DNA from: Elusimicrobiota bacterium
Lineage (GTDB): Bacteria > Elusimicrobiota > Elusimicrobia > FEN-1173
NCBI GenBank assembly: GCA_016715645.1
Contig: JADJZR010000004.1
Location: 101,269-165,268 of the forward strand
Reading direction: 5' to 3'
Length of the DNA stretch: 64,000 nucleotides
The notes under the pieces were generated by a model. The model did not search any database, was not told the DNA's origin, and was given only the letters and a program-made list of their open reading frames with translations. Below, one piece after another: positions 6,004-30,959 of the stretch (its first letter is position 1; every line of letters starts with the position of its first letter). A program made the translations under genes and the position numbers.

Positions 6004-8423
6004 CAGGGGAAACACGAACAGTGGATTTTCTTGCGTTGGATTCGGACGGGTTGGTTCGTCTCAGCAAAGAGCGGGGGCTATCGTTGAACGCCGAAGAAAT
6101 GGGCGCGATCCAGCGTTATTTTGGTACCCAAGGACGAAGTCCCTCGGATCCGGAATTGGAAACTCTGGCTCAAACCTGGTCGGAACATTGCAAACACAAA
6201 ACTTTTCGCGCCGCCGTGCACCATGTGGACGAAGACGCCGCCGGTGTTCAAACAGAAAAAAACTATAAAGATCTCCTGAAAGAAACCATAGTTAAGGTGA
6301 CTGACGAATTGCGCAAACCCTGGTGTTTGTCCGTATTCAAAGACAACGCCGGGATTGTGGACGCCAATTGGGCGGACGGGGAATGGGGTCCCCAGGCGTT
6401 GGCGTTTAAGGTGGAGACCCACAACCATCCTTCGGCGTTGGAGCCTTACGGCGGAGCGGGGACGGGACTAGGGGGCGTGATCCGCGACGTGTTAGGCGCG
6501 GGGTTGGGCGCCAAACCCATTGCCAACACGGATGTGTTTTGTTTTGGCCCGGTGGAGGATGGGGAGAAAAAAACCGGCTCCGGCCTTTCCACCCGACGGA
6601 TTGTGGAAGGCGTGGTGTCGGGGGTGCGGGATTACGGCAACCGGATGGGTATCCCGACGGTCAACGGGGCCGTGGTGTTTGACCCGGATTTTAAGGAAAA
6701 CCCGCTTGTGTTTTGCGGCACCCTGGGGCTGATTCCCCAATCCGCCATTGCCAAAGAAGTTCGGTCGGGCGACCTGATTGTCATGACGGGTGGCCGTGTG
6801 GGGCGCGACGGGATCCACGGCGCCACGTTTTCTTCCGACGCGCTCACCACGGGAATTCCTTCGAGCGTGGTTCAAATCGGCAACCCCATTGTCCAAAAGA
6901 AAATGATGGACGTCCTCTTGCGGGCCCGGGACAAGGGCCTTTATCGTGGCATCACGGACTGCGGAGCGGGCGGGCTGTCGTCGGCGGTCGGAGAAATGGG
7001 CGAAAAAACGGGCGCGCGGGTCCACTTGGAACGGGTGCCGCTGAAATACGACGGCATCGCTCCCTGGGAAATTTGGTTGTCGGAGTCCCAGGAACGCATG
7101 GTGTTGGCGGTTCCCCCGGAAAAGTGGGCCGAGTTGAAAAAGATGTTTGACGACGAAGATGTGGACTGTTCCGACATCGGCACGTTCACCAACGATGGGC
7201 GGCTGATCGTGAAACACGGTCCCCAGGTGTTGGTGGACATGGCGATGGACTTTTTGCACGACGGGGTACCCAAACGGTCCATGGAATCTCGGTGGGCCCC
7301 GCCCCCGGCCGTCCCTTTTCCAGCCCTGGGAACGAAAAAAGCGGACGGGATCGAATCGTCCTTGTTGGCCGTCTTGGCTCAACCCACGGTGGCGTCGAAA
7401 GAATGGGTGGTGCGCCAATACGATCACGAGGTTCAGGGGCGGACGGTGGGAAAACCGTTTGTGGGACCCGCGGGCGTTGGTCCGTCGGACGCGGCGGTCC
7501 TTCAGTTGTCTCCGCGCGAAAAGCGCGGGGTGGCCTTGGGGTGCGGATTGAATCCCCATTACAGCCGATGGGATCCGTACTGGATGGCGGCGTCGGTCCT
7601 TGATGAAGCCGTTCGCAACCTGGTGGCGGTGGGCGTTCGCACGGACCGCATTGCTATTTTGGACAACTTTTGCGGAGGCAATCCGTGGCGGCCAGAAATT
7701 TTGGGCGAACTGGTGCGCACCGCCCAGGCCTGCCACGACGTGGCGCTGGCCTACGGCACGCCGTTTATATCAGGCAAAGATAGTTTGTTTAACGAGTTCG
7801 TGGTAGGGGGATCTCGGCGATCCATTCCAACAACTTTGCTGATATCCGCCCTGTCTTTAGTGGATGATGTTTCCCGTTTGGTGACTATGGATTTGAAAAA
7901 GCCGGGGAACCTGTTGTTTGTGCTGGGGGAAACCCGCGACGAACTGGGCGGTTCCCGATACGGCTTGCATCGGGGAACCCGGGGCGGATCGGTGCCCCGG
8001 TTGGATCCGAAAGAAACCTGGCCCCTTTACGAGGCGCTCAGTTGGGCGATCCACGACGGGTTGGTGGCCTCGTGCCACGACTGTTCGGAAGGCGGGTTGG
8101 GCATCGCCTTGGCGGAAATGGCGATGGGGGGAGGGTTGGGGGCCGTGGTGGATTTGCGCCGGGTTCCGGTATCGGCGTCCTTGTCTTTGGAAAAGCGCTC
8201 GGACAAGGTGCTCTTCTCAGAAAGCAACGGTCGATTTGTGGTCGAGGTGGCCGCCCGCCATCGGCGGGCTTTTATGTCCGTGTTAAAGGGGTTGGTTGTG
8301 GAACAGGTCGGCGAGGTGCGATCGGCGGGTGGTTTGTGCGTCACGGACTTGGGCGCAAAGAAAGCGGTTTGGGCAATGAACGACATCCAATCGGCCTGGA
8401 ACGCAAAGGGAGGCCGGCCATGA
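6000..8423 (+). CDS. purL: FGAM synthase II (small PurL)
   Basis: 807-aa ORF. GTG start overlapping purS stop. Confidence 0.95.
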   Translation: MTGETRTVDFLALDSDGLVRLSKERGLSLNAEEMGAIQRYFGTQGRSPSDPELETLAQTWSEHCKHKTFRAAVHHVDEDAAGVQTEKNYKDLLKETIVKVTDELRKPWCLSVFKDNAGIVDANWADGEWGPQALAFKVETHNHPSALEPYGGAGTGLGGVIRDVLGAGLGAKPIANTDVFCFGPVEDGEKKTGSGLSTRRIVEGVVSGVRDYGNRMGIPTVNGAVVFDPDFKENPLVFCGTLGLIPQSAIAKEVRSGDLIVMTGGRVGRDGIHGATFSSDALTTGIPSSVVQIGNPIVQKKMMDVLLRARDKGLYRGITDCGAGGLSSAVGEMGEKTGARVHLERVPLKYDGIAPWEIWLSESQERMVLAVPPEKWAELKKMFDDEDVDCSDIGTFTNDGRLIVKHGPQVLVDMAMDFLHDGVPKRSMESRWAPPPAVPFPALGTKKADGIESSLLAVLAQPTVASKEWVVRQYDHEVQGRTVGKPFVGPAGVGPSDAAVLQLSPREKRGVALGCGLNPHYSRWDPYWMAASVLDEAVRNLVAVGVRTDRIAILDNFCGGNPWRPEILGELVRTAQACHDVALAYGTPFISGKDSLFNEFVVGGSRRSIPTTLLISALSLVDDVSRLVTMDLKKPGNLLFVLGETRDELGGSRYGLHRGTRGGSVPRLDPKETWPLYEALSWAIHDGLVASCHDCSEGGLGIALAEMAMGGGLGAVVDLRRVPVSASLSLEKRSDKVLFSESNGRFVVEVAARHRRAFMSVLKGLVVEQVGEVRSAGGLCVTDLGAKKAVWAMNDIQSAWNAKGGRP

Positions 8424-9208
8424 CGGTCAAAGCGTTGGTTCTGCGGGCACCGGGGACAAATTGCGATGTGGAAACCTCCTGGGCCCTGGAGGCCGCGGGG
8501 GCGGACCCCCAGCGGGTTCACGTGAACGCTTTGTTGCGGGGCGAGGTGTCGTTGGACGAGTTCGGCATCGTCGTTTTTCCGGGCGGGTTTTCGTTTGGAG
8601 ACGACATCGCGTCAGGAAAAGTGTTGGCCAACCGACTGGTGTATCGCCTGCGCGAACAGTTGGACAATTATTTGTCGTTGGGCCGGCCCATCGTGGGCAT
8701 TTGCAACGGGTTTCAAGTGTTGGTGAAAGCGGGCTTGTTGCCGGGCACGGCGGGCCCGTGGGACGGAACCCCCACGGTGACGCTGACCGACAACGATTCC
8801 GGCCGGTTCGAGTGCCGATGGGTTTATTTAAAAACAACGTCCAAAAAAAGTTTTTGGGTCAAGAGCCTGCCCGACGTTTTTCCTATTCCCGTCGCCCACG
8901 GGGAAGGCAAGTTCGTTGCGCTGAATCACTCGGTTTACAAACAGCTGGAAAAAAACGGCCAGGTCCTATTTCGGTATGTGGACGACCGGGGTCGCAAGGC
9001 CGGATATCCGGCCAACCCGAACGGATCGATGGGCGACGTGGCGGGGATCACCAACGGCGCGGGCAACATCTTGGGCCTGATGCCTCACCCGGAACGAACC
9101 TCGTTCCCGTTTCAAAACGCCCAGTGGACCCGTCAAAAACCGTCCAAAGATGGCGTCGGTCTGCGCCTCTTTAAAAACGCCGTCCGTTACGCGGCCCAGG
9201 TGAACTGA
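8420..9208 (+). CDS. purQ: FGAM synthase I, glutamine amidotransferase subunit
   Basis: ATGA overlap with purL. GATase Cys in GICNGFQ. 262 aa. Confidence 0.9.
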   Translation: MTVKALVLRAPGTNCDVETSWALEAAGADPQRVHVNALLRGEVSLDEFGIVVFPGGFSFGDDIASGKVLANRLVYRLREQLDNYLSLGRPIVGICNGFQVLVKAGLLPGTAGPWDGTPTVTLTDNDSGRFECRWVYLKTTSKKSFWVKSLPDVFPIPVAHGEGKFVALNHSVYKQLEKNGQVLFRYVDDRGRKAGYPANPNGSMGDVAGITNGAGNILGLMPHPERTSFPFQNAQWTRQKPSKDGVGLRLFKNAVRYAAQVN

Positions 9209-9210
9209 TT

Positions 9211-10617
9211 ATGAATCCGACCGTTGTTTCCAGAGATCCGATGGATGTGGTTCATGAAGAGTGCGGCGTTTTTGGGATTTACAACAATAAAGAAGCGGCG
9301 CGGCTGACGTATTTGGGGCTTCAACAGCTCCAGCATCGCGGGCAGGAATCCGCCGGGATTGTCAGTTCTGACGGAGATCGATTTTATTCCCATGTGTCCA
9401 TGGGATTGGTGTCCGACGTGTTTCATCAATCGGCGTTGGACAAGTTAAAAGGCCGCATGGCCATTGGCCATGTGCGTTACGCCACGGCGGGTGCGTCCAG
9501 TTTGCTCAACGCCCAGCCCATCGTGGTGACGACGGCCCGGGGACCTATGGCCATCGGCCACAACGGCAATCTCACCAACGCCATCACCCTGCGAAAAAAA
9601 TTGGAAGCCGAGGGGTCCATTTTTCAAACGTCCTCGGACACCGAAGTGGTTCTTCACCTCATCGCAAAATCGGCGGCTCCGGATTTGGTGGACGCGCTCA
9701 AGGAGGCGTTTGGCCAAGTGACCGGCGCCTACTCGATTGTCCTGCAAACCCCGAAAACCCTGTTCGCTGTGCGGGACCCCTGGGGCGTGCGGCCCCTGCA
9801 CATCGGGCGGTTGAACGGGTCCCACCTGGTCGCCTCAGAGACCTGCGCGTTTAATATTGTGAACGCCAAGCTGGTGCGGGAAGTGCGCCCTGGTGAAATT
9901 GTGGCCATCGACCACCGGGGTGTGCACACGGTGGCCCAACTGCCGGCTCAGTCCCAGGCCCATTGCGTTTTCGAATATGTCTATTTTGCCCGGCCCGACA
10001 GCCATATTTTCGGCAAAAGCGTGTACGAGGTCCGTCGGGAACTGGGCCGCCAACTGGCCCGGGAAGCCCCGGCCAAAGCGGATATCGTGGTGGCTGTTCC
10101 CGATTCGGCGTCGGTGGCCGCGATGGGCTACGCCGAAGAGTCGGGCCTTCCCCTGGAGATGGGTCTGATCCGGAGCCACTACAAGGGGCGCACTTTTATT
10201 GAACCCAAACAGTCCATTCGGGATTTCGGCGCGCGCATGAAATACGCCGCCGTGGTGGAAGCCTTGAAAGGCAAACGGGTGGTGTTGGTGGACGATTCCA
10301 TTGTGCGGGGCACCACCAGCCGCAAACTGATCCGGATGTTGAAACGGGCGGGAGCCAAAGAGATTCACATGCGCATCAGTTCCCCGCCCATGCGGGGGCC
10401 GTGCTTTTACGGGATCGATACGCCGGAATCCAACGAACTGATCGCGACGCGATTGTCGGTGGAAGGCATTCGCCGTTATTTGAACACCACCAGCCTGAAA
10501 TATTTAAGTCTGGAAGGGATGCTTCGTGCGGCGGGAAAAAAGCCGGACGATTTTTGTTCCGCCTGTTTCACGACAAAGTATCCCATCGCGATCACCGATG
10601 GCGGGAGGTTTCAATGA
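9211..10617 (+). CDS. purF: amidophosphoribosyltransferase
   Basis: 468-aa ORF. N-terminal catalytic CGVFGI and the PRTase motif. Confidence 0.95.
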   Translation: MNPTVVSRDPMDVVHEECGVFGIYNNKEAARLTYLGLQQLQHRGQESAGIVSSDGDRFYSHVSMGLVSDVFHQSALDKLKGRMAIGHVRYATAGASSLLNAQPIVVTTARGPMAIGHNGNLTNAITLRKKLEAEGSIFQTSSDTEVVLHLIAKSAAPDLVDALKEAFGQVTGAYSIVLQTPKTLFAVRDPWGVRPLHIGRLNGSHLVASETCAFNIVNAKLVREVRPGEIVAIDHRGVHTVAQLPAQSQAHCVFEYVYFARPDSHIFGKSVYEVRRELGRQLAREAPAKADIVVAVPDSASVAAMGYAEESGLPLEMGLIRSHYKGRTFIEPKQSIRDFGARMKYAAVVEALKGKRVVLVDDSIVRGTTSRKLIRMLKRAGAKEIHMRISSPPMRGPCFYGIDTPESNELIATRLSVEGIRRYLNTTSLKYLSLEGMLRAAGKKPDDFCSACFTTKYPIAITDGGRFQ

Positions 10618-11661
10618 ACGTCCTGGTGATCGGATCGGGCGGACGGGAACACGCTTTGGTGTGGGCGTTGCGCAAAAGCCAGACGGTGCGGCAAGCGTAT
10701 GCCGCGCCCGGCAACGCCGGGAGCGCCGGGTTGGCCGATTGTCTGGATGTGAACACCAAGGATGTTCGGGCGGTGATTCAGGCCATCGAGTCGAAAGAGA
10801 TCGGGCTCACGGTGATCGGGCCGGAGGCCCCGTTGGTGGACGGGTTGGCCGACGGATTGCGCGCGGCGGGCCACGCCGTGTTTGGGCCAGGCCGCGCCGC
10901 GGCTCGGTTGGAAGGGAGCAAAACGTTCGCTAAGGATTTTATGACCCGCCACGGGATTCCCACCGCCGGGTATAAGTCGTTTTCCACTCCAGCGGAAGCG
11001 TTGGGGTATGTTCAATCGGCTCAGTGGCCGGACAGTTACCGGGTGGTTAAGGCCGACGGGTTGGCCGCGGGTAAAGGCGTGGTGGTGTGCAAGAGCCGAG
11101 ACGAGGTGCAAGCCGCCGTTGAACAGATGATGGTGCACCGGGCGTTCGGCGCGGCGGGCGACCGGGTGGTGATCGAGGAGGCCATGACCGGGGAAGAACT
11201 GAGTGTGATGGCGTTAACAGACGGAGAAACCCTGTTGACCCTGCCCACCACCCAAGACCACAAACGGGTGTTCGATAAAGATGAAGGACCCAACACGGGC
11301 GGCATGGGAGCGTATGGGCCCGTGCCCCAAGTGACGAAAGAAACCTGGGCGCGGATTGAAACGGAAATTTTGGGCCGGTTTCGGGACGGCTTGAAACGGG
11401 AAAAGATCGATTACCGAGGGGTTATTTATGTCGGTCTCATGCTGACACCCACGGGGCCGCGGGTGTTGGAATTTAACGTGCGGTTCGGCGATCCGGAAAC
11501 CCAGGTGATTTTACCTCTGGTGAGTTCCGATTGGGGCAAACTGTGTGACGGGACTGGGCGAGAGCCTGGCTCTGGCCCGGGACCGGTCCTACGCCGCCGT
11601 GTCAAAAATTTCGTTCGAGGGCTCCCACCACCGCACCGACATCGCCGCCCGGGGCCTTTGA
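10614..11661 (+). pseudogene. purD: phosphoribosylamine-glycine ligase disrupted by a ~250-bp internal deletion plus frameshift
   Basis: ATGA overlap with purF. N and ATP-grasp domains intact to ...PLVSSDWGKLC (~11545). The reading then continues in another frame as VTGLGESLALARDRSYAAVSKISFEGSHHRTDIAARGL* (stop 11659-11661), which is the PurD C-terminus. About 80 aa of the C-domain are missing. Junction at ctgtgtgacg. Confidence 0.7.
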
Positions 11662-11720
11662 CCGGGATTTTCTGGTTGGCACAGGGCATTCGTTGACTTG
11701 CCAAAAGCCTGTGACGCGCA

Positions 11721-12137
11721 ATGAACCAATTTCCTGTTAATCCCGAAACATTAAAAAAGTTGGAAGAGCGGTTGCGCGCCGTGGGCGTTGAGGAACCCGA
11801 TTTGGAGGAGCGGTTTGTCCGGTCCGGAGGGCCCGGGGGACAAAACGTGAACAAGGTCTCCAGTTGCGTTATTTTGGTTCACGTCCCGTCGGGAATTACG
11901 GTCCGGTGCCAGGAAGAACGGTCGCAGGCGATGAACCGCTACCGGGCCCGGCAACGGTTGGCCGAGCGGATGGAAGAAAAAATTCTCGGCGCCGCGAGCG
12001 CGAAACGTCAAGCCATCGAACGGCTCCGCCGCCAAAAACGCCGACGGGGCCGGCGTGCCCGGGAAAAAATGCTCGCCGACAAACGCCACACCGCCCACCT
12101 CAAAGAGTCCCGCCGCCCGCCACTGGATGAAACCTAA
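11721..12137 (+). CDS. arfB: ribosome-rescue peptidyl-tRNA hydrolase ArfB (RF-1 domain, GGQ)
   Basis: 138 aa. SGGPGGQNVNK motif and basic C-terminal tail. Confidence 0.8.
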   Translation: MNQFPVNPETLKKLEERLRAVGVEEPDLEERFVRSGGPGGQNVNKVSSCVILVHVPSGITVRCQEERSQAMNRYRARQRLAERMEEKILGAASAKRQAIERLRRQKRRRGRRAREKMLADKRHTAHLKESRRPPLDET

Positions 12138-12239
12138 ACCCGGCCTATTGGCCCCTGTATAAATAAAGGTAACTGCTGTTATGTGAACATCAAGCCCCTG
12201 GGATGGGTGACGTTCAATAAAAACCCATTTTTATGCCCT

Positions 12240-13034
12240 CCCGACTTTGACAGATAAATTCAACTTTTGAGGGTCCCATCGTCGAAGGCGGGTTTCCAAA
12301 ACCGAAAATGTAGTTACACGATTTTTATTTTTCTGTGATTTTCTATTGATGATGGCGGTAAAAGTTAATGTAATGTTGCCATGTTCGTCAGACTCAATCG
12401 CAACTCTCAGGGCAAAGCCTACCTCCAACTCGTCCGCAGTTATCGAGAGGGCGGCAAGGTCTTGACACGGGCGCACCGACGTTGAATGAGCAGGCGATCT
12501 TGGAATCGCAACGACGGGATGGTTTTTTTGGTGTGGTCACGAGCGTGAAAACCGAGGCCATGAATGGGGAAGAGATCTACGAACGGTATCGGGATCTGTG
12601 GCGTGTGGAAGATGCCTTTGGAGAAATCAAAGGGCCACTGGAAACGCGTCCGATGTTTCACTGGGTGGATCCCCGGATCCAGTCCCACGTGATCATTTGT
12701 TTAATCGCATATTACATTGAGGCGATCATCACGCGAGAGCTACGAAAAGCCCAGGCCGACTTCACGGTGGGCGAGCTGTTCCGAGCGCTGAACCAGGTTC
12801 ATGCCATCCCGGTGGACGTCCGGGGAACGCGGGCGTGGGTGCGCAACGAAATGAAGGGGACGGCTACCGCAGGATACGAAATCCTGGGGCTAAAGTTACC
12901 CGACCGGGTGCTGAAGATTGAAAAGATGCAAATTAATGAGGAATCTGGGGAAAGTGTAGTGGCACAAAAAATGGCGCCAGTGCTGAAAAGTGTTGGTGGA
13001 TAGGTTTTTTTAAAATTCATGTGTCAAAGTCGGG
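12240..13034 (+). mobile_element. IS1634-family IS remnant (internally deleted) with terminal inverted repeats
   Basis: TIR cccgactttgaca (12240-12252) versus tgtcaaagtcggg (13022-13034). Transposase N-terminal 33 codons (MFVRLNRNSQGKAYLQLVRSYREGGKV, 12362-12466) and C-terminal 173 aa (12482-13003). The middle ~300 aa is absent. The 5' ~200 bp is AT-rich. Confidence 0.6.
12482..13003 (+). pseudogene. C-terminal fragment of an IS1634/IS4-like DDE transposase
   Basis: YRDLWRVEDAFGEIKGPLETRPMFH...IICLIAYYI matches the transposase C-terminal region. N-terminal and catalytic core are missing. Confidence 0.6.
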
Positions 13035-13059
13035 TTTCAATCGGGAAAGAGAAAGGCCC

Positions 13060-15530
13060 AACGACCGTAAGCCGTTGAGCCTTTCGACCCCCGTGGGGGG
13101 TTTCTCTAATGGCGGGGTTTTTAAATTTTGAAAAACTCCGTATTCCCATTTCCTTTCCGAATCTCTCCCACTCCTACTGGAGACATTATCATTTGACAGG
13201 TGACTATCCATCCGGCCGACACGATTGACCCTGTAGCATGGGCTTCCAGCCCATGTGGTTTTGCATGGGCCTTTGGAATTTAAGGGGGATGGTTGGGAGG
13301 GGGTGGCTGTGAATCTTCCTTCTCCCGTCCGTGGGAGAAGGTGTCCCGAAGGGACGGATGAGGGGCGGTTTTCCGTTGAACGAAGCCCTTGTAATTCCCT
13401 CGCCCGCTGGTGACTGCGCTAGCAAGAAATGCCGTGTGGGAACGGCCGGGAGAGGGCCAGGGAGAGGGTGGGCGTATTTCACCTCACCCCCACTGGGGGA
13501 GGCCGGTCGCAGAGCTCCCGGCACCTGGGGCGGCAGAGCCGCTGATGCGAGGCAGGGAGCGGGGGGCGTTTTTTTAGCTTCAATTTGTGCCCGCTATGCG
13601 GGCGCCACAGCGCGCCGCTGTTCTCTCCACGTTCTCGTCCAATGAATGGGACAGTAAGCAGGACAAGACCTGGATCTTCGGACCTGGCGAACGCCACGGT
13701 GACCGTGCTCGAACCCCCGGCCACCGAGAAACCCAGCGCCTTTCTTCGCTCATCGAAAACAGCCCCGCCACAGGAAGAAGAGGCCCAGCCATTTCGGGCC
13801 GGAGGAGGAAGCCGGGACCTTGGTTGAATTGCTGGACGGGGAAGAATGGGGACCGCTCCTCTTTCGGTGGATAAAAACGACTGTTCGCCAGGCCACCCAC
13901 GGCGGCGGACTGTGCGCCTGTTAAACGCTAACGGTTGATTCGTCTGCTGTTGAGGGAACAAGCGGACGACCCAACAAGCGGAGAAACCCCACGCTGGACG
14001 AACGCCCGTCGCGGCGCATCAAACGCGCCCAACTCCTGCCTCCAATTTCGACGTTTCCAGCTCCGATCCACGGGAAAAGCCGCGCGGCCTTTTTGCCGCG
14101 CCCCGCTGGGCTCCGGCGGATTCGTTCCCGCCGGACCGGTTCCGCCCATTGCTTCGGTCGGGAAACGGAAACCCGCTGACGGTTATTCTGTCAGTCGCGA
14201 GAGATGTGTTTCCCGCTCCGGTTTGCGGGAAACCCCGCGCCGGACGAACGCCCGTCGCGGCGCACCAAACGCGCCGCAACTCCTGCCTCCGATTCCAACG
14301 TTTCCAGCTCCGGTCCAACGGAGAAGCCTCGCGGCCTTTTTGGCCGCGCCCCGTGGGCTCCGGCTGAATCGTTCCCGGCCGGACCGCTTCCGCCCCTTGC
14401 TCCGGTTGGGGAAGGGAAACCCGCTGACGGTTATTCCGTCGGTCGTGGGAGATATGTTTCCCGCTCCGGTTTGCGGGAAACCCCGCGCCGGACGAACGCC
14501 CGTCGCGGCGCATTAAACGCGCCGCAACTCCTGCCTCCGATTCCGACGTTTCCAGCTCCGGTCCACCGGAAAAGCCGCGCGGCCTTTTTGGCCGCGCCCC
14601 GCTGGGCTCCGGTGGAATCGTTCCCGCCGGAGCGATTCCGCCCATTGCTCCGGTTGGGGAACGGAAACCCGCTGACGGTTATTCCGTCGGTCGCGGGAGA
14701 TATGTTTCCGGCTCCGGTTTGCGGGAAACCTCGCTCCGGACGAACGCCCGTCGCGGCGCATCAAACGCGCCGCAACTCTTGCCTCCGGTTCCGACGTTTC
14801 CCGCTCCGGTCCACGGGAAAAGCCGCGCGGCCTTTTGGCCGCGCCCATGAAGCTCCGGTGGATTCTTTCCCGCCGGACCACTTCCGCCCATCGCTTCGGT
14901 CAGGGAACGAAACCCACTGACGGTTATTTCGTCGCTCGCGGGAGATATGTTCCCGGCTCCGGTTTGCGGGAAATCCCCGCGCTGAACGAACGCCCGCCGC
15001 GGCGCATTAAACGCGCCGCAACTCCTGCCTCCGATTCCGACGTTTCCCGCTCCGGTCTACGGGAAAAGCCGCGCGGCCTTTTTGGCCGCGCCCCGCTGGG
15101 CTCCGGTGGAATCTTTCCCGCCGGACCACTTCCGTTCATCGCTCCGGTCGGGGAACGGAAACCCACTGACGGTTATTTCGTCGGTCGCAAGAGATATGTT
15201 CACAGCTCCGGTTTGTGGGAAATCATTGCTCCGGACGAACGCCCGTCGCGGCGCATGGTTTCCGGACGAGCGTCCTCCAACCAGCCCTTCGGACCCGGGG
15301 CCTGTTCGGCCCGCGCCAACCGTGTGCCGCCCGCCTCCACGGCTCGGCATTAAACGCGCCGCAACTCATGCCTCCGGTTCCGACGTTTCCCGCTCCGGTC
15401 CCACGGAGAAGCCGCGCGGCCTGAGGCCGCGCCCCGCTTCCGCCCCGGCCCCGCTCTGCGGGGCTCCACCTCCCGGCCCGCCGGTCACCTATGGGCTTCG
15501 CCCTTTCTTCGCGCGCGCACACCAAAATCA
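13060..15530. repeat. left arm of a ~2.47-kb inverted repeat (unique ~0.9 kb + tandem-repeat array); partner at 31330-33790
   Basis: Reverse complement recurs at 31330-33790. ORF-track peptides are identical on opposite strands (13204-13524 minus = 33350-33754 plus). The two tandem arrays are ~95% identical to each other. Confidence 0.9.
13996..15480. repeat. tandem array of ~6 copies of a GC-rich ~247-bp repeat (last copy has a ~95-bp insertion)
   Basis: Unit starts at 13996, 14242, 14490, 14738, 14983 and 15233 (periods 245-250). Each unit holds three GCTCCGGT motifs at spacings 92/64/92. It also contains the hairpins gcgcggcc-ttttt-ggccgcgc and gcgccg-N14-cggcgc. Confidence 0.9.
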
Positions 15531-16056
15531 AGTGGAATTCGTCGGTCCAGGAGGTGGACTCAGTCCCCTTCGGGGCCTGAGCGGGGCGGAATTGTGCCCG
15601 AACGGGCACATACCCCTCCGGGGTATACGGATAAAGGCCAGAGCAAATTCCGACACCAACTCTTAAATGCACAGACGAGTTGGGGCACGTTCACTTGTGC
15701 CCCAATTCGTCCGCAAATCGGTAGAGCAAATCCGAAAGTGCCACTGCCGCAGCCGATTAAGTCGGCCGCCCCGCCATGTCAACAGCCAAGGCGCGCGGCC
15801 TTCGGCCGCGATAGGAGCCGTCGCTCTGCTCCGGAAATATAATGGCGGCCAAGTCGTGGCCCCTCCCCCCCACGGTTCTCGCCTTCCTTCATGCTTGGTA
15901 GGCCAACGCTTTTGGCGTTTTTCTCTATCTCTGCTTTGGATCTGACGGCCGTGGCCAGGCCCCTGCCTAAGGGCAGGGGCGGGGGCGGGGCCACAGGCCG
16001 CCGCCCGTACAACCCCCCCTCCCCATTTCAAGGGCAAAACCATGAACACCTGCCCA

Positions 16057-16258
16057 CCCAGGCGCCGAAGGACACGGCTCGCCCGTAGCGCGGAGAGACC
16101 CGCGCCAGCCAGGCGCCGAACAACGCGGCTCGCCCATAACGCGGAGAGACCCGCGCCAGATGGGCGCCGAATAACGCGGCTTTTCCGGGGCGCGTAGGGA
16201 CTCGCGCCAACCAGGCGTCGAACCCCACGGCTAGCCCACTCGGCGTCAAGTGGGGCAC
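16057..16258. repeat. ~52-bp tandem repeat x4 (caggcgccgaa...cgcggagagacccgcgccag)
   Basis: Copies at 16057, 16109, 16160 and 16211, the last two degenerate. Confidence 0.8.
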
Positions 16259-16290
16259 AAAAAAAACGCTGGCAGATCTTATCCAGCGCT
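16259..16290 (-). terminator. rho-independent terminator downstream of the DUF1016/SNase gene
   Basis: Hairpin acgctgg-N10-ccagcgt followed by T8 on the minus strand. A weaker T4 follows on the plus strand. Confidence 0.6.
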
Positions 16291-16323
16291 TTTGAATATT
16301 TTCTTTTAAAAGAGGGGGGGAAC

Positions 16324-16851
16324 TCAGTAAATCCGGGCCAGTCCCCGATCGAGTAATTCTTGATTCAGCCATCGCCCGTCACGGTATACTCGGCCCCAAT
16401 CTATCCGCTCATCCAGGCTGTAAAATATGTGACCCACAAACCGCCCGTGTAAATCTTCTTTACTCGTTCGGATCACAATCTTCTGAGCCTTAGCCAATTG
16501 GTCCCGAACGTAGGCCAACGCTTCCTCCCCACCGTCTTCTTTCAACGGTGGCGTGTCCACTTCCGCCAGTCGAATTCGCTGACCAATCCACACCTCAAAC
16601 CCGAGGTCCAGTCGGACAAGCAAGGTATCGCCATCAACAACACGTTGAATCTCAGCCCGATAGATGAACGGTTCACCCTCCGGGCGCTTTAATTGTTTGG
16701 GCGGTTTCCTGTTTCCGTTTGTGGGATCTTCACCAAAATGGTCCGCTTGGATCGCTTTGACCAGTTCGTCCCGGGTCCACTTCTTTTCGACGGCCGTGGT
16801 CTCGTAAAAACGGCGGGCCTCATCGTTTTTTACCGTCAAAAGTTCCCTGAC
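16324..16851 (-). pseudogene. 3' part of a DUF1016(YhcG)_N / staphylococcal-nuclease (SNase) fusion gene split by the RIT insertion
   Basis: VRELLTVKNDEARRFYETTAVEKKWTRDEL continues the DUF1016 middle region (compare E. coli YhcG WSHNVVLIQSCKSDEERLFY). It is followed by an SNase domain (VVDGDTLLV, RLAEVDTPP, DLHGRFVGHIFY). The apparent start is TTG because this is an internal continuation. Confidence 0.7.
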
Positions 16852-16935
16852 TTATGTTGGCCTCGCACTTATGTTGGCTTCACTCCCACCTCTGACGGCA
16901 CTGTTCTCATTTTACACAACATAACGCGGGCTTGC

Positions 16936-17932
16936 TCACAACCCGGCGAGGAAGGCCATGACGCCCGGGTCCGTTTTCCAGGGTTTGACTTGGCGTCCCG
17001 TCCCGGCGACGTTGCAACGGGCCAGGGCCTTGGCCTTGGTTTCAAAATCGACCTCGGCGTAGATCAATGTGGTGTCCAGTGAAACATGCCCCAGCCAGCC
17101 GCGGATGGTGTTGATATCGACGCCTGAGCGGAGGAGGTGGACGGCGGCGGTGTGGCGGAGGGTGTGCGGGCTGATGCGTTTCTTGAGCATGTCGGGATTG
17201 GTTTTGGCGGCGACGGCGGCATATCTCTGGACGAGTTCGTAGAGGCCGAACCGCGTGATGGCTTTCCCGCCGCGGCTGATGAAGACCGGATCTTCGGGCG
17301 TGCGGCCTGCGGTCAAGCGCTTGAGGGCTTTGACCGTTTCCGGCCAAAGCGGGCAGAAGCGCGTCTTGCGGCCTTTGCCCAGAATTTTGACGGAGGACGA
17401 TCGCCCGAGGTCCAAGTCTTGGATGGTGAGTCGGGCGACTTCATCGGCGCGGGCGCCGGTGTTGTAGAAAAAGAGCAGCACGGCGTAGTCGCGGAACCCG
17501 AGTGAATCCTTAATATTCGGGGCCAGCCTGAGCGCGTCCATTTCCGATTTGTCGAGGTAGGGGACCTGGGGCCTGCCTGTTTTTCTTGAAAGGGACGACA
17601 TGAAGAGCTGAACACCAGGCGACGTGTTCCGGGCTATGCAAGGCGATGAATCGTGCGAGTGAATGGACGGCCGCCAGCCTGTGGTTGCGTGTGGCGATTG
17701 AACAGTGGCGGACCTCTTCCAGGTGGGCGAGGAAACGGCGGATGGCGTCCGGGGAGAGGTCCTCCACATCCAGGCGGTCGACGGGTTTTCGGGCGAGCCC
17801 TGCGGCGAAGGGGAGCAAGAGGACCAAGGCGTCGCGGTAGCTGGCCTGGGTTTGGAGCGCCAGGTTGCGCTCACCGACGATATGCTCCAAGAGAAAGCGT
17901 CGAATCCAGGTACCGACGAGGGCGTTAGACAT
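16936..17932 (-). pseudogene. tyrosine recombinase (ritC-like), frameshifted near 17560-17600
   Basis: N-terminal core-binding domain in one frame (17932-17510). Catalytic domain (HTLRHTAAVHLL...LGHVSLDTTLIYAEV) in another frame. Frames overlap at FKKNRQAPGPLP / SRKTGRPQVPYLD in a C/G run. Confidence 0.7.
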
Positions 17933-18869
17933 GGGAATCCTCCGAAAAGGCGTAGCGGTGGAAGCGGCGGTTGGCGGCGGCGAGGAGCTCCGGGGTCAAG
18001 GTGAGATAGACCTGCGTGTCTTGAAGATGGCGATGGCCCAGGTAAACAGAGAGATGATGGAGTCTTGTGGAGAGGTCCGCGCCCGGCGGCATTCAGGCCA
18101 GGAGCCTGTGGACGGCGGCCGAATGTCGGAGGTCGTGGAGCCGTGGCTAGTAGCGTGCGTCGGCTTCCCGACGGACGCCCGCCTGGTTGCAGATTCGTCG
18201 AAACCAGCATTCGACGGTGGGATGGGACAGGCGGCGACCCGAGCGACGGCCGACGAAGAAGGGTTCTGTCGTTGAGGAGGATTTTGCCCATGGCTTTCGT
18301 TTGACGGCGTAGGCCGTGAGGACTTGGGCCAGCTTGGGGCCAATGGGGACCAGACGTGTCTTGAAGAACTTGGTGTCGCGGATGGTGAGGATCCTCTGGT
18401 CCAGGTCCACGTCGGCGACGGTGAGGAGATCGCCTCGCCGATGCGCAGGGCCGCGCCGTAGAGGGTGAGCAGGACGGCGTGGAGCGTGAAAGGCTCCAGC
18501 TCGTAGGCGAGCTTCATCCGCATATGAGCGACGGCCGCGAGGATCCGGCGGATTTCCTCCGGGCGTAGATGTAGGGTTTCATGCGCTCGGGTTTCTTGGG
18601 TTCGAAGGCCGGGAGGGGCAGTGGAAGGGGAATCTCTCTTCCCGCGCGAAGCGCTGGAGGCCCCGGAGGGCGCTGGCCTTGTGGTGCCAGTATTGGGTAA
18701 GTGGCCCTGAACCGTTGAGAGGCCAGGACCTTGTCGGGTGAAATGCGGCGGTGGTTGCTTTTTCCGATCGTTCGACGAACAGGCGCAGGGCGCGGGCGTA
18801 TGTATCGAACTTCTTGCCAAGGGAGCGTTTGTAGGCGATGTAGCGCTCAACGAGGACGGGGAGCTTCAT
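17929..18869 (-). pseudogene. tyrosine recombinase (ritB-like), at least 3-4 frameshifts
   Basis: Pieces in different frames: MKLPVLVERYIAYKRSLG; HETLHLRPEEIRRILAAV...LYGAALRIGEAI; DLDQRILTIRDTKFFKTRLVPIG; LHDLRHSAAVHRLLA; LGHRHLQDTQVYLTLTPELLAAANRRFHRYAFSEDSHV*. Stop overlaps the ritC ATG. Confidence 0.65.
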
Positions 18870-20100
18870 AGGACCTCCCCCAAGTCGAAGGCGGCGACGT
18901 CGCGTAACGCCGGGAGGTCGACTTTGGCGTAATGTCGGGTGGCGTCGGCGCTCCTGTGGCCGAGGTGGTTGCCGATTTCGGGCAGGGAGAAACCTTCGGA
19001 AACGAGCCGGCTGGCGCAGGCGTGGCGGAGGCAGTGGGGCCCGCGATGGAGGAGCTTGATCCCGGCGCGGTCGATGGGGTTGGCGACGACGGTCCAGAGG
19101 GCCGCGGAGGAGATCGGCCGGACAGGGGCCAAGAGACATAGGAAGACCTCGCGGTGGTGGGTCTTGGGGCGGACCTCTTTCAGGTAACGCAGGATGGCCC
19201 GGCCGACCGAAGGGATAAGCGGATATGTCTGGCGGCGGCGCTGCTTGGTCCTGGGAACGGTGATGCGATCACGGCGCCAGTCGATGTCGTCCAGGCAAAG
19301 GCGGGCGACCTCACCGGCCCTGAAGCCGTAGACGGCGAAAAGGAGGAGGATGGCCCTATTGCGGACGTGGGAGGGGCGGCCGGTGTTCAGGGCGGCGAGG
19401 AGGCGCTTAACCTCGGCCAGAGGGCCCGCGGGGCAGACCTTCGCGGGAATAAATAGTCGGGCCATGGAAGGCATCGGCGAGGCCCGGAGAGCAGAGGCGT
19501 CGGATTTCGGCGTATCGCAGGAAGGACCTGGTGGCGTTGGCGACGTTGAGGACACCGACGCGGGAGAGGCCCTGGGCATGACAGGCGGCCAGGAAGTCGT
19601 CAAGGTCGACGACGCGTAGGCAGAAGAGCGGACGATTCTTCGGTTCCCACCACCGGAGGAAGGTGAGGAGGCTGTATTTGCGGTTCTTGAGCGAACCGAC
19701 GGAGAAACCGCGCTCATGCTCCAGCCAATTGAGGGAAATCCCGGTAGAGGGTCCACAGGGGCCCGGCAGCGGGAGTGGGATCCTTCCAGCGGCCGAAGAA
19801 ACGGAGCCATTGTTTAAGCAGACGTCGGAGTGTCTTGCGAAGATAGGGTAAAACCCGGCCATGACGTTGGCGGACGAAGCGCGCGATGACCGCCTCCACG
19901 CCGGCCGTGTCATGGACCCCGTCGGCCAAGAGCTGGATTGCGGGGACCAAACGGAGCAGGTCCACGGCGGTTTGGGCCAGGTGTCCTGGTTTGTATCCTT
20001 GACGGTCGAGTTGGGCAAGAAATCGCCGGCGTTCTTCTGACAGCGGGGCAGCTTTGTGGCGGGCAACGGCGGACGGGAGCGAGAAGATTTTATCGAACAT
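18866..20100 (-). pseudogene. tyrosine recombinase (ritA-like), two or more frameshifts
   Basis: N-terminal extension MFDKIF... (20100-~19745). Core-binding domain GISLNWLEHERGFS...RSFLRYAEI (~19742-19410). Catalytic domain RNRAILLLFAVYGFRAGE...HCLRHACASRLV...LGHRSADATRHYAKVD (to 18866). Confidence 0.65.
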
Positions 20101-20253
20101 GGTCGGGCACCTCCGAGGGATTGGATACACCCAACCAATACAGCGACTTGTTATGTTATGTCAAGGCAAGGCGTGCTCGACAGAAACAGAGGGCAAAGCC
20201 AACATAAGTACGAGCCCAACATAATACCGCTTATGTTATGCACAACATAAGCG

Positions 20254-20565
20254 CATGTGGGACCAGCTCAATGGTGTGTTTTTGGGGACGCCCTTGGGAT
20301 AATACTGGTGGTAAAGAACACACCGCACCAGAGTTGTCCGGTCGGCGTGTAGCTCGGTGGCAAGCCGTTCCATGATGGACTCGCCGTAGCCGGAGTTTTC
20401 CGTCAGCCGCTCGCGCGCGATACGTTCTCCCGCGCGCCAATAGGTCGTCATCAATGCTTGATTCGTCGCCGCTTGCGCCCTTGCCCGTCCAGTGTCAATG
20501 ATTTTCCGGAGATCAACGACCAGCTTGTCGAACGTTGGGCCGCTTAGGACAATTTCTTTCGTCAT
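20254..20565 (-). pseudogene. 5' part of the DUF1016(YhcG)_N / SNase gene interrupted by the RIT element
   Basis: RAQAATNQALMTTYWRAGERIAR...NSGYGESIMERLATEL is a typical DUF1016 N-terminal region. It reads ...PLSWSHM then enters the RIT terminus. Confidence 0.7.
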
Positions 20566-20975
20566 CAGGATTCACTTTCCAAAAGGTTTTTCAGAGTGCT
20601 AAGGTCACGCTTTACCAAAGCAATATCCGCCATGAATCTCTTTTTAGACATGTTCGGTGACCGGAATAAAGTGAATACCACTTCGCTTCCGGCCCCGTTC
20701 GCCACCACACGCATTGGCACGTAGACCGGAACGCCTCCGGGGGGGAGAATTATGTGGTCCAGAACCCCAAGAGCATTCTTTTTTTCAAGCCGGATCTCAA
20801 CCGGACCCAACGAGGTTTCCATCAACCATTTGCCTTTCTGCCGCCTGGACGCCTTGCAAAACGTCGTCGCCCATCGAGCTAGATTGGCGGGATTGGAGGC
20901 GAAACGGTAAACATCTTTAGGGGTCCGTTTAATAGAAACGCTCAACGTATGCGATACAAGCATGGGGTTTGTCAT
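20565..20975 (-). CDS. SRPBCC (START/Bet v1-like) family protein
   Basis: 136 aa. Weak fold-level similarity only. ATGA overlap with the downstream DUF1016 gene. Confidence 0.5.
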   Translation of the reverse strand: MTNPMLVSHTLSVSIKRTPKDVYRFASNPANLARWATTFCKASRRQKGKWLMETSLGPVEIRLEKKNALGVLDHIILPPGGVPVYVPMRVVANGAGSEVVFTLFRSPNMSKKRFMADIALVKRDLSTLKNLLESES

Positions 20976-20985
20976 GGTTTTTGGT

Positions 20986-21207
20986 TTATCGTCGATTCAA
21001 GACCAACTCCAACCCTTCCCGCGCCTTCGCGGCAACGGTTTCGTCAACCGCCAAAGATTCCAGGTATCCCAGGAACAAATCCGCCGTTAACTGGTCGGCC
21101 GCGCCCTCAATGGCGGCGGCGAGGGTCAACAACTTTTTCCATTCGTCGCCTTTCCCCACCATTCGGCGCAAGGCTCGAACTTGCCCACCCATGCGGGCAA
21201 GGCGCAT
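20986..21207 (-). CDS. hypothetical small protein (73 aa)
   Basis: ORF 11 nt upstream of the SRPBCC gene, same strand. No motifs recognised. Confidence 0.35.
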   Translation of the reverse strand: MRLARMGGQVRALRRMVGKGDEWKKLLTLAAAIEGAADQLTADLFLGYLESLAVDETVAAKAREGLELVLNRR

Positions 21208-21503
21208 TTGTAAGGTCGTATGATCATTTGTTGCTTCGGTAACGGCGTATTTTTTTTCATTTTCCCCATGCCATTATCTCCCCATTATGGCCTGAATAAT
21301 CCCAATAACACAAAGCCTTTGAGATGAAGAATTCTACAAAATCCGAGCTTGACCATGCCCAAGGATGGCGGTAGAATTCGATATTCTTAGTAGAGCCTTA
21401 CGGAGGTCCCCTGCGAAAAATCAAACGTTACGGCTGGCTCCCGGACTTACCCGACCAATGAGACTTTCTTTTCGCCGCGCCGCCCATCAAACTTCCGAAA
21501 ACG

Positions 21504-22160
21504 GTGGACTTCCGCCCCAAATGCCCGCCGGTCTACGACCATGGCCAGCTCGGCGGTTGCACCGCCAATGCCATTGGCGCCGCCCACCAGTTCGAGCGGA
21601 TGAAGCAAAAGGCAAAATCCGCTTTCGTCCCATCCCGGCTTTTCATTTATTTCAACGAGCGGTTGATCGAACACACGGAAAACCAGGGTTCTGGCGCCAT
21701 GATCCACGACGGCATGAAAACAATCGTCCACCAGGGGTCTGATTGGCCCTACGTGACAGCCCGTTTCACCAATAAGCCCCCAGCCCCTTGTAATAAAAAG
21801 GCGTTAGACCACCAGGTGGTCTCCTATCAACGATTGGTTCAAACGGAGCGCCAGATGAAAGCATGACTTGCCTCTGGGTTTCCCTTTGTCTTCGGTTTCT
21901 CCGTCTATGAAGGTTTTGAGTCCGAATCCTTGGCGAAAACAGGCAAATTCCCCATGCCCGAAAAGGGGGAGAAGATGCTCGGCGGCCACGCCGTCAAGGC
22001 GGTCGGCTATGACGACGCTAAGGGGCGTTTTATCGTCAGGAATTCGTGGGGGCCGGAGTGGAGGATGGAAGGCTACTTTAGCATACCCTACAACTACCGG
22101 CTCAGCGATACACTTTCCATGGAATTCTGGACAATCCGGTTGGTGGAGGTTCCTGGGTAA
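21504..22160 (+). pseudogene. papain-like (C1 family) cysteine peptidase with one in-frame TGA (21864-21866)
   Basis: PPVYDHGQLGGC (catalytic Cys region). After the TGA the same frame continues LASGFPFVFGFSVYEGF...GGHAVKAVGYDD...FIVRNSWGPEW (His and Asn). GTG start, no obvious signal peptide. Confidence 0.65.
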
Positions 22161-22308
22161 GATTCGATCTCCTTACGGTCCAGGGTGCATTACCTCCATC
22201 TCGCCGAGTTCGACCGTAAACCGAATCGGGAGGGCGACAAATAAGGAGGAGGCAGCTACAAGGCGATAAAAAACCTCAACAAGACGTAGGACGAGCGTGA
22301 CGTTTTCA

Positions 22309-23709: not shown

Positions 23710-24128
23710 GGAAGGGGTTGGATGCGAGATCGCCCCATCGCATCAATCAAGCGAAGAATCTCCCTCTGCCATTTCACCCACCGATCTCGCGCTTGCCGGA
23801 ACTGGCGGTATCGCCCCGTCCATTCTCGGGCCAGGCCCACCCGATCGGGGGGCAGGGTCCAAAGCCGTGTTCGGCCTTGAACGCTGGCGGTCAGAACCAC
23901 CGTGGTGTGGGGTTTCCCCCGCGCGCAACGGCAGGAGGGTTTTGAACATTTTCGGCGAAGCGTATACACCGTTCCGCGGGCCGAGGGCCCCGGCGCGACG
24001 AACACGTCCAGAAGGCTTTTACCGGCGGGGTTCTCGATCAGCGTCAAGAGGCGCCGACGAAGTAAGCTGAGTTTTCGGTTTGACTGCATGTTGTTATACA
24101 TAATAGCATACAGAATAAAAAAAATCAA
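23706..24128 (-). CDS. IS-associated hypothetical protein (140 aa, Cys-rich KCSKPSCRCARGKPH)
   Basis: ATGA overlap with the transposase. Lies inside the IS boundaries. Confidence 0.45.
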   Translation of the reverse strand: MIFFILYAIMYNNMQSNRKLSLLRRRLLTLIENPAGKSLLDVFVAPGPSARGTVYTLRRKCSKPSCRCARGKPHTTVVLTASVQGRTRLWTLPPDRVGLAREWTGRYRQFRQARDRWVKWQREILRLIDAMGRSRIQPLP

Positions 24129-24203
24129 CCGAGATCGTGGTAGTGCACCCTACGGTCCAGGCATCCTTGCGAGCGGCCGATATATCTGATATAGATGTAA
24201 GGT

Positions 24204-30903: not shown

Positions 30904-30959
30904 GGCACTTTTTTTTAGAAACATTTATAGTGCATTATGCAATACATTAAGGAGGAGCT

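Follow-up and report, generated by a model that had tools for sequence, protein, structure and literature searches.

Among large serine recombinases (LSRs), the integrases of phiC31, Bxb1, TP901-1 and A118 have an enzyme architecture, a catalytic motif, and hybrid attL and attR sites around a very short identical core that all recur at the locus described here. To our knowledge, the characterised serine integrases use protein-coding or intergenic sites rather than tRNA 3' ends and carry a single attP, whereas the present element has, as conserved parts, a second attP in inverted orientation and long inverted repeats into which the integrase 3' end extends.

Islands integrated at tRNA genes by tyrosine integrases, and tycheposons, likewise place the integrase gene beside the tRNA 3' end, carry a small, variable cargo that often includes defence genes, and occur as empty and occupied sites among close strains. 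However, tRNA islands are bounded by direct repeats of 15–50 nt of the tRNA body, whereas only 3–8 nt are shared here, with the crossover at the CCA/discriminator end; the enzyme next to the tRNA is an LSR, and the repeated part of the tRNA amounts to 6 nt, as opposed to the at least 15 nt of classical tyrosine-integrase islands. A tycheposon preprint reports an LSR in a minority (27 of 937) of its tRNA-island elements (doi 10.1101/2020.12.28.424599), and the portions of the literature covered by our search contained no description of an internal inverted att site in tRNA islands or tycheposons.

The predicted circular form recalls the yeast 2-micron plasmid, with Flp/FRT in 599-bp inverted repeats, and the flip-flop isomers of the chloroplast inverted repeat, in that an inverted repeat holding a recombination site separates two unique segments, the orientation of these segments relative to each other distinguishes the isomers, and the arms show concerted evolution. 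The 2-micron plasmid differs in relying on the tyrosine recombinase Flp instead of an LSR and in not being integrative; no replication function was seen in the present element, whose circle is a prediction. Hin, Gin and Cin also combine a serine recombinase gene with inverted sites that bracket a DNA segment, but these are enzymes of ~190 aa that need a Fis enhancer and act on identical sites of ~26 bp lacking attP/attB asymmetry, in contrast to the 479-aa LSR and the attL-, attP- and attR-type hybrid sites found here.

The stretch analysed, referred to as the window, comprises 64,000 nt of contig JADJZR010000004.1 of an Elusimicrobiota bacterium. We propose, with a probability of about 0.75, that it contains an integrative island of 23.2 kb whose own LSR inserted it exactly where tRNA-Ser(GGA) ends on the 3' side, the internal copy of the repeated core being a second, inverted attP. 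The features are collected in Table 1.

Table 1. Coordinates of the island, its attachment sites, its repeat arms and adjoining features in the window.
Feature	Position	Strand	Basis or content
Whole inserted element, 23,173 bp	13116–36288		missing from the L005 empty site
attL (site A)	13091–13140	+	host B arm 13091–13107, core AATGGCGG 13108–13115, element P' arm (Y) from 13116
IR1 left arm (core + Y, 2.4 kb)	13091–15519	+	inverted-repeat pairs I25, I3, I14, I6, I8, I15, I19, 96–100% identity
Tandem array in IR1 left arm, 248 bp x 5.2	13978–15256		TRF
Unique cargo	15520–31336		two tyrosine recombinases, UPF0236 transposase, OEP, split AcrB (Pfam)
IR1 right arm (Y' + core')	31337–33784	-	tandem array at 31617–32896
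Internal inverted attP (site B)	33735–33812	-	minus strand reads z-AATGGCGG-Y; core CCGCCATT at 33760–33767 on + strand
IR2 left arm (core' + z')	33760–34108	-	inverted copy of recombinase 3' end + 130-bp spacer
LSR gene, 479 aa	34714–36153	+	Resolvase, Recombinase, Zn_ribbon_recom domains; residues ~408 onward encoded inside IR2
IR2 right arm (z + core)	35939–36288	+	terminator-like hairpins at 36236–36252, 36256–36271
attR (site C)	36260–36310	+	element P arm (z), core AATGGCGG 36281–36288, tRNA body as B' arm
tRNA-Ser(GGA), intact	36283–36372	-	ARAGORN; last 6 nt (CCGCCA) inside core

Insertion and hybrid junctions at tRNA-Ser(GGA)

The initial annotation described three att-like copies of a core derived from the tRNA-Ser 3' end, with a direct pair bracketing an element of ~23 kb and an inverted pair bracketing the recombinase cassette. 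The exact repeat CCAACCGGGGGGTGTTTCTAAAATGGCGG occurs only twice, at 33760–33788 (-) and 36260–36288 (+), with 0 expected from 100 shuffles, and the pattern GGGGGGT-N0-2-TTCT-NN-AATGGCGG matches exactly three sites, 13095–13115 (+), 33760–33782 (-) and 36266–36288 (+), with a chance expectation of 0. The three copies are thus real, although their coordinates had been given one base too low, and the core is not a common genomic repeat. The derivation from the tRNA holds for 6 nt, TGGCGG being the complement of the 3'-terminal CCGCCA of tRNA-Ser(GGA), and not for the rest of the core; AATGGCGG itself ends in the complement of the tRNA CCA. None of the three sites is an isolated 25-mer: they are where two long inverted repeats, IR1 and IR2, have their outer ends. 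Rfam, searched over the whole window at the gathering threshold, gave no match, the tRNA included.

The comparison genomes are all metagenome-assembled genomes (MAGs). One of them, the near-identical L005 (99.9% identity), has an empty tRNA-Ser site of the kind anticipated in relatives. It matches window 7577–13115 at 99.9% and then 36264–36993, collinear on both sides, with a 25-nt overlap that corresponds to the core region, and reads TTTCTGTAATGGCGG followed directly by AAGGGGAGGG at the junction. Since L005 runs from window position 13115 straight into the tRNA, 13116–36288 is an insertion, and the direct pair does bracket an element of ~23 kb. The site is occupied in L001 (97% identity) and in L006, where the element is 92–95% identical and the flanks only 73–77%. 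The unit has therefore passed from one species to another complete with its internal site. tRNA-Ser(GGA) is identical in L005, L001 and L006. A target-site duplication of the transposon type is absent, the cassette being flanked by CCA and TGG in inverted rather than direct orientation, and the empty site lacks the entire 23 kb and not the cassette alone, which counts against a transposon or IS with terminal inverted repeats.

With attB taken from L005 and attL, attP and attR from the window, attL and attR are clean half-site hybrids of attP and attB around a short identical core, the exchange point lying inside AATGGCGG. The left part of attL equals the L005 attB except for one SNP, while its right part has the sequence found on the Y side of site B; in the reverse complement of site B, the sequence left of the core is identical to attR and that right of the core to attL. 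The 13.1-kb copy, which matches 21 of the last 25 positions of the exact repeat (ungapped manual count, anchored at the right end), is an att site as first thought, yet not a decayed element core: its divergence is that of a host attB left arm joined to the right arm of the element. The inverted copy is more than a core, since the complete z-core-Y junction is present; by its sequence, the 33.77-kb copy is a complete and intact attP that lies within the element in inverted orientation. That the repeat reaches into the flank, which had been called unusual, is explained by where the crossover sits in this recombinase family, namely the CCA/discriminator end of the tRNA. As the CCGCCA terminus comes with the core, the tRNA is left intact.

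The internal junction is independently spanned by the metagenome contig L052 (1224 nt, JGI) and by L006. Related MAGs come from nanopore assemblies, as their contig names indicate, so fold-back or chimeric long-read assembly might have created the inverted copies; such an artefact is extremely improbable, given that the arms differ in point changes and in repeat register, that four independent assemblies, L052 among them, contain this junction, and that dozens of unrelated assemblies have the same layout.

The adjacent recombinase and its relatives

The enzyme adjoining attR is identified by its domains and motifs as a bona fide LSR, in agreement with the initial annotation. Its catalytic domain matches PF00239 (E = 1.9e-37) and contains the nucleophilic-Ser motif YxRVSTxxQ as AIYTRVSTDRQ, followed by PF07508 at residues 192–273 and PF13408 at residues 286–347. 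The best matches among solved structures are the TP901-1 and A118 integrases, the former through its catalytic domain (E = 6e-28) and the latter through its C-terminal region. An exact-protein look-up of the LSR returned no record.

Since tyrosine integrases typically target tRNA 3' ends and two Phage_integrase ORFs are present in the cargo, a cargo tyrosine recombinase (16936–19810) might have integrated the island with the LSR as a passenger. These genes, however, are separated from attL by 3.8 kb, including the 2.4-kb repeat arm, and L006 carries a different cargo between the same backbone ends, unrelated in the visible 7 kb. Moreover, the same triad of sites bounds L014, an element of only 5.3 kb in its entirety, in which the LSR is the sole recombinase recognised among the scanned ORFs and no Phage_integrase match was found among them. 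With a shared core of 3–8 nt and no repeat of the tRNA body, this origin is very unlikely.

Related LSR loci extend the layout beyond the window. In about 30 of 37, the recombinase gene is enclosed by an inverted repeat; these loci come from hosts belonging to Omnitrophota, Planctomycetia, Margulisiibacteriota, Nitrospirota and others, and their recombinases are only 45–60% identical. At 14 loci (13 relatives and the window), an arm ends at most 9 nt from a tRNA 3' end, the targets comprising ten tRNA species (Ser, Gln, Val, Ile, Met, Leu, Tyr, Arg, Asn and Ala). The full triad of attL, inverted attP and attR is found in four further elements, L014, L018, L020 and L036, with only TGG shared. 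The inner repeat boundary falls at recombinase residue ~410 throughout the related loci, the left arm has differences of its own that are conserved across elements together with a conserved promoter-like motif, and many relatives have a recombinase ORF that continues through attP into the antisense strand of the tRNA. Judged by these comparisons, the three-site layout is conserved across the family and is not an accident of the window locus. Only one subclade has a DprA-like gene ahead of the LSR. In L007, whose LSR is 73% identical, the inverted repeats are longer and interrupted, and the contig contains no tRNA. The viral contigs scanned yielded one relative with an incomplete locus and no circular form.

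In a set of nine elements, a CGAACC-like motif starts at position 17–18 on the Y side (P' arm), while CGAACC of the tRNA T-loop starts at position 13–15 and GGTTCG lies ~14–15 nt left of TGG. This spacing gives these elements a quasi-palindromic attP that is longer than attB, as in other serine-integrase elements. It also agrees with the geometry expected from A118 integrase structures, in which attP half-sites carry the outer recognition motif farther from the centre than those of attB. The offset of 3–4 nt between attP and attB motifs is seen in the other subclade and is not evident in the window's own sites, where the T-loop-like TTTGAA is equally distant in Y and in the tRNA.

Inverted-repeat arms and inversion isomers

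The IR2 arms of 350 nt differ by 3 mismatches, all more than 160 nt away from the core, and IR1 and IR2 overlap by 25 bp at site B. Fifteen fixed differences between the window and L006 are common to both arms, and the 120–150 nt nearest the core are 100% identical between arms in 15 of 20 elements, a pattern in which the arms evidently evolve in concert. Three other readings of the arms were considered. As L006 combines the same arm with unrelated cargo, we rejected the view that the 2.4-kb arms bound a recombinase-in-trio element, in which a trio of neighbouring tyrosine recombinase genes lies between inverted repeats. Stop codons interrupt the tail frame in most elements, and a protein-coding left arm was rejected on this ground. 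The idea that the recombinase is driven from a promoter within Y' was set aside for the window, where a promoter-like site (34631–34660) lies directly upstream of the gene inside the cassette.

The internal copy might instead be a neutral fossil without a role, left by a one-off inverted duplication or a rearranged tandem integration. Inverted duplications do occur, other mobile DNA litters the window element, and the arms have decayed in L011, L012, L028 and L017. This reading is nevertheless improbable in view of the spread of the layout over several phyla with such divergent recombinases, the constant inner boundary of the repeat, the conserved peculiarities of the left arm, and the complete identity kept next to the core; nor are the relatives recent copies of a single element, as their cargo and tRNA targets differ.

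Inversion isomers exist among the relatives, as read from their arm junctions. The internal site has a beta-type Y end in L014, L018, L020, L036 and L039 and an alpha-type Y end in L048, L031, L021 and L012, the latter four being alternative isomers with respect to the cargo ends. In L032, the cassette isomer, tRNA-Tyr is bordered by the left-type arm, and a beta-type Y end adjoins the recombinase arm. Of the 14 loci where an arm ends at a tRNA 3' end, only L032, whose LSR looks frameshifted, has the cassette reversed. A second orientation of the window element was not seen in the window, L001, L006 or L052, the last of which, the only contig (1.2 kb) recovered by a metagenome scan with the core, is too short for isomer detection; the scan gave no circular contig. 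No inversion is seen in this element, and the evidence for the suggested inversion lies only in the isomers of relatives.

An in-situ switch, as read in the initial annotation, would have the LSR itself recombine the inverted cores while the element stays integrated, flipping the cassette (33.77 x 36.28 kb) and the 20-kb segment (13.1 x 33.77 kb). The cores have the right orientation, the exchange points of the isomers lie within ~45 nt (cargo) or ~150 nt (cassette) of the core, and L032 represents a cassette-only inversion that is unobtainable via the other attP of an unrearranged (type I) circle. However, such a switch would depend on attP recombining with attR and with attL, and, as far as we know, the characterised LSRs of phiC31, Bxb1 and A118 perform neither reaction. 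We likewise know of no canonical LSR that recombines attP with attL, attR or attP, so that inversion driven by the LSR would be non-canonical. Identical arms of 150–2400 bp are ample RecA substrates, and the isomers could come from homologous recombination in the arms instead of recombinase action at the core. Together with the strong orientation bias and the single orientation of this element, this makes in-situ switching doubtful, albeit with a real share of the probability.

Proposed cycle and its implications

In the favoured account of an island integrated by its own LSR, attB would consist of the host terminator-like flank, AATGGCGG and the tRNA acceptor/T-arm, and its recombination with the element attP (z-AATGGCGG-Y), probably catalysed by this LSR, would create the junctions at 13.1 kb (attL) and 36.28 kb (attR), while the core copy at 33.77 kb would be a second complete attP retained in inverted orientation. 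The element would comprise two back-to-back segments, each bounded by an inverted repeat, namely the cargo with its Y arms and a 2.5-kb recombinase cassette with its z arms, which contain the recombinase gene 3' end. Excision (attL x attR) is predicted to release a circle with two inverted attP sites embedded in an inverted repeat of ~2.8 kb, a form that we infer to exist; the excision product is unrecognisable from sequence alone because its junction is identical to the internal attP. Recombination between the arms of this circle, whether at the core through the LSR or in the arms through homologous recombination of the host, would flip cargo and cassette relative to each other and to the tRNA. 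The internal attP is presumably functional, and either attP of the circle could then be used for integration. Several points count against this account: the unrecognisable excision product, the non-canonical character of any LSR-driven inversion, the equal spacing of TTTGAA in the window's own sites, the biased orientation, comparisons made with MAGs only, the tyrosine recombinases in the cargo, and no candidate recombination directionality factor identified in the window.

A broader and more tentative proposal, to which we give somewhat less than even odds, concerns a family of small, cargo-carrying integrative elements whose LSR reads generic tRNA features (the CCA/discriminator end and the T-loop) and has been retargeted to at least ten tRNA species. 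Such elements would have an obligatory second inverted attP within long inverted repeats that include the recombinase 3' end, forming a two-segment flip-flop of 2-micron-like geometry with a switchable orientation of cassette and cargo. Such switching might give the elements an intrinsic means of controlling integration or the expression of their recombinase or cargo. No description of the three-site layout, an LSR with an internal inverted attP, was found in the available portions of the full-text literature searched, which does not prove its absence; as far as these sources go, the widespread family has so far been undescribed.

Serine integrases are workhorses of genome engineering. A clade landing on the CCA end of many tRNA genes suggests recognition via universal tRNA features, which could make targets predictable or retargetable. 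The conserved inverted attP and the inclusion of the integrase 3' end in the repeat point to an unstudied control layer in LSR elements, comprising inversion isomers, two attP sites per circle and the concerted evolution of the arms. The layout also suggests an annotation rule for small islands, in which a tRNA 3' end is followed by an LSR cassette flanked by inverted repeats and by a second inverted repeat that ends at attL; the rule would apply in poorly studied phyla, where some such islands carry defence genes.

Insertion at the end of tRNA-Ser

The 29-mer CCAACCGGGGGGTGTTTCTAAAATGGCGG has two exact matches (sites B and C, at 33.77 and 36.28 kb), where none is expected by chance, and a relaxed pattern recovers a third copy at 13.1 kb (site A) with no further match in the 64-kb window. 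The core coordinates of the initial annotation are one base too low and otherwise right. The core, i.e., the short block common to the three sites, overlaps the 3' end of a tRNA-Ser(GGA) gene, and from the position of this gene on the minus strand, its TGGCGG is the complement of the terminal CCGCCA. With a denoting the host left flank, t the tRNA, Y the sequence to the right of the 13.1-kb core, and z that to the left of the 36.28-kb core, site A reads a-core-Y, the reverse complement of site B reads z-core-Y, and site C reads z-core-t.

A 173-aa protein encoded immediately left of site A is also found on contig JAGPDP010000067.1 (L005), which shares 99.9% identity with window 7577-13115; from there, its sequence jumps straight to window 36264, with the junction ...GACCCCCGTGGGGGGTTTCTGTAATGGCGG|AAGGGGAGGGATTTGAACC, i.e., a-core-t. 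Therefore, 13116-36288 (23,173 bp) is an insertion with hybrid junctions, in which A is attL and C is attR, while the L005 sequence represents attB; the comparison also places the exchange point within AATGGCGG, the only block identical between attB and the element's junction. The direct pair had been proposed to bracket a ~23-kb element as candidate attL/attR, and an empty tRNA-Ser locus in relatives had been suggested as a check; L005 bears out both. However, the 13.1-kb site, previously read as a diverged core copy, is a host arm and not a decayed element core. This host arm and the z arm are alike in having a G-run, then TTTCT; each is hairpin-like with a T-rich tail and abuts the tRNA end, which we infer may reflect functional convergence. 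In sequence, site B corresponds exactly to the attP expected from excision, yet it lies inverted inside the integrated element. Elsewhere in L005, 230 nt in the purD (GARS) gene region (3969-4198) are absent at window 11544/11545, representing either a deletion/frameshift in the window or an insertion in L005.

The three sites mark the outer limits of a pair of long inverted repeats, IR1 and IR2, with a 25-bp overlap at site B. The ORF in the IR2-flanked cassette carries the catalytic motif AIYTRVSTDRQ, and among solved structures it best matches the TP901-1 and A118 integrases; together with its domains, this identifies the ORF as a large serine recombinase (LSR), as initially annotated, and the element's enzyme belongs to that class. 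Its final ~70 codons fall within the right arm of IR2.

Features of the element and its surroundings in the window
Feature	Position	Orientation	Description
Site A	13095-13115	+	relaxed pattern
IR1	13091-15519 / 31337-33784	inverted	2.4-kb arms, 96-100% identity
248-bp tandem repeat	13978-15256 and 31617-32896		in each IR1 arm; 5.2 copies, 89-92% matches; GC-rich, without codon periodicity
51-bp tandem repeat	16054-16237		just interior to left IR1 arm; 3.6 copies, 75% matches
Cargo	16936-19810		two Phage_integrase ORFs around a 284-aa ORF; possibly a recombinase-in-trio unit
Other cargo	22309-23709, 24547-29450		UPF0236-family transposase, outer-membrane efflux protein, AcrB-type pump (two overlapping frames; may be a pseudogene or long-read frameshift)
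Site B	33760-33788	-	exact 29-mer
IR2	33760-34108 / 35939-36288	inverted	350-nt arms, 3 mismatches
LSR ORF	34714-36153		479 aa; bracketed by IR2; Resolvase, Recombinase and Zn_ribbon_recom domains
Site C	36260-36288	+	exact 29-mer
tRNA-Ser(GGA)	36283-36372	minus	ARAGORN
86-bp direct repeats	36546-36690 (L005 6034-6185)		just 5' of tRNA-Ser; arrangement differs between window and L005

Related elements and their sites

Another metagenome-assembled genome (MAG), L001, has the site occupied at 97% identity. In L006, an Elusimicrobia MAG of another species, flank identity to the window is just 73-77%; the Y' array, core, IR2, LSR, and tRNA-Ser are present at 92-95% identity, and the cargo is unrelated. 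In addition, a 1.2-kb JGI metagenome contig (L052) spans Y'-core'-z'-U, where U is the unique interior of the cassette. The internal attP therefore moves with the element and is not an assembly artefact, a reading that the family data also contradict. The 248-bp array is kept at ~92% identity in L006 (7193-8121), and the Y arm measures only 40-190 nt in relatives versus 2.4 kb in the window. L006 also contains a 156-bp insert (11571-11750) that separates attR from the complete tRNA-Ser and has a 24-nt direct repeat of the tRNA 3' end (AAATGGCGGAAGGGGAGGGATTTG) on either side; this insert resembles a relic of another, distinct integration in the T-arm region.

A search with the LSR as query, one genome per species, returned 45 loci. 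An inverted repeat of 40-700 nt surrounds the recombinase gene in ~30 of the 37 loci with a substantial match, its right arm beginning at about residue 410 of the recombinase, and at 13 loci plus the window, an arm ends at most 9 nt from a convergent tRNA gene's 3' end (Ser, Gln, Val, Ile, Met, Leu, Tyr, Arg, Asn, or Ala). All three sites were located in L014, L018, L020, and L036, and follow the same attL/inverted attP/attR logic as in the window, demonstrating a conserved layout; the sites share just TGG, which is complementary to CCA or to CC followed by the discriminator base. Cargo in these four (5.3-9.2 kb) includes a type I restriction-modification system, a protease paired with a MORC-like ATPase, a caspase-like protein with a MORN-repeat protein, and an enolase-like protein alongside an MFS transporter. 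Among the scanned ORFs of the 5.3-kb L014 element, the LSR is the sole recombinase. Integration by a tyrosine recombinase from the cargo is contradicted by the family data and the independent contigs, which also contradict the internal copy being a neutral fossil.

In most relatives (L014, L018, L020, L036, L039, L048, and others), the recombinase ORF has no stop before the core and runs 29-125 nt into the tRNA antisense strand; thus, its last 10-40 residues would not be the same after excision as in the integrated form. In one subclade, a DprA-like (PF02481) gene of ~190 aa lies directly upstream of the recombinase within the cassette (L014 9215-9805), with homologues in L018, L020, L028, L029, L030, L032, L036, L039, and L048; in L031 the homologous stretch is split over two frames ~3.7 kb upstream, outside the cassette, and neither the window nor L006 has the gene, which could encode a directionality factor or have another function. 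The closest non-identical relative, L007 (73% aa identity), has a far longer inverted repeat (3201-4341 / 6240-7425), in which an unrelated stretch of ~100-135 nt interrupts the homology between blocks of 350 nt and 700+ nt; its contig carries no tRNA, and it may represent a different state of the element, e.g., a free form.

In nine elements of one subclade, the tRNA T-loop CGAACC starts 13-15 nt past TGG, Y has a CGAACC-like motif beginning at 17-18 nt, and GGTTCG in z lies ~14-15 nt left of TGG. This spacing makes attP a ~46-bp quasi-palindrome and attB ~38 bp, reportedly the site pattern of serine integrases from work on the A118 integrase; the window's own sites show no evident offset of this kind.

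Homogenised arms and inversion isomers

Within the 120-150 nt closest to the core, the arms are 100% identical in 15 of 20 elements, with mismatches concentrated 120-220 nt from it. A comparison of the window with L006 gives 15 fixed differences common to both arms, against 9 and 6 within the elements, a pattern of concerted evolution. The innermost ~60 nt differ between left (AAAG-TGGCAT-TTATTCGAC) and right (AAAG-GTCAT-TTATTCGAA) arms, and this difference is itself conserved among elements. A conserved TTGACA-N19/20-TGCTAnAnT motif precedes the left arm, oriented into it. The left arm was considered as a second coding copy and rejected, since the tail reading frame is interrupted in most left arms.

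The Y ends fall into two types: alpha has a promoter-like TTGCAn-N17-TATAAT directed at the core, then a terminator hairpin, and beta has a GCGGGCGC...GCGCCCGC hairpin, followed in L020 and L036 by a promoter-like site directed into the cargo. The attL is alpha and the internal site beta in L014, L018, L020, and L036; the internal site is also beta in L039, whose attL is unlocated, and alpha in L048, L031, L021, and L012. In L032, the LSR of which appears frameshifted, the left-type arm adjoins tRNA-Tyr and a beta end follows the recombinase arm, an inversion of the cassette alone. Hence, relatives comprise isomers, and both segments have inverted in the course of the family's evolution, the exchange points always lying in the shared arms.

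Characterised LSRs, as far as known, do not target tRNA 3' ends and have a single attP, whereas the window element targets such an end, has an additional attP in inverted orientation, and has long inverted repeats that take in the integrase 3' end. A full-text literature search found no description of a tRNA-end LSR with an internal inverted attP; a tycheposon preprint records only the presence of an LSR in 27 of 937 tRNA-island elements (doi 10.1101/2020.12.28.424599). The window's LSR would have integrated a circle via z-core-Y, and the excised circle would carry two inverted attP sites in a ~2.8-kb inverted repeat, a geometry like that of the 2-micron plasmid. Arm-to-arm recombination would flip the segments, either through host homologous recombination or through a non-canonical reaction of the LSR at the core, and integration may be possible through either attP.
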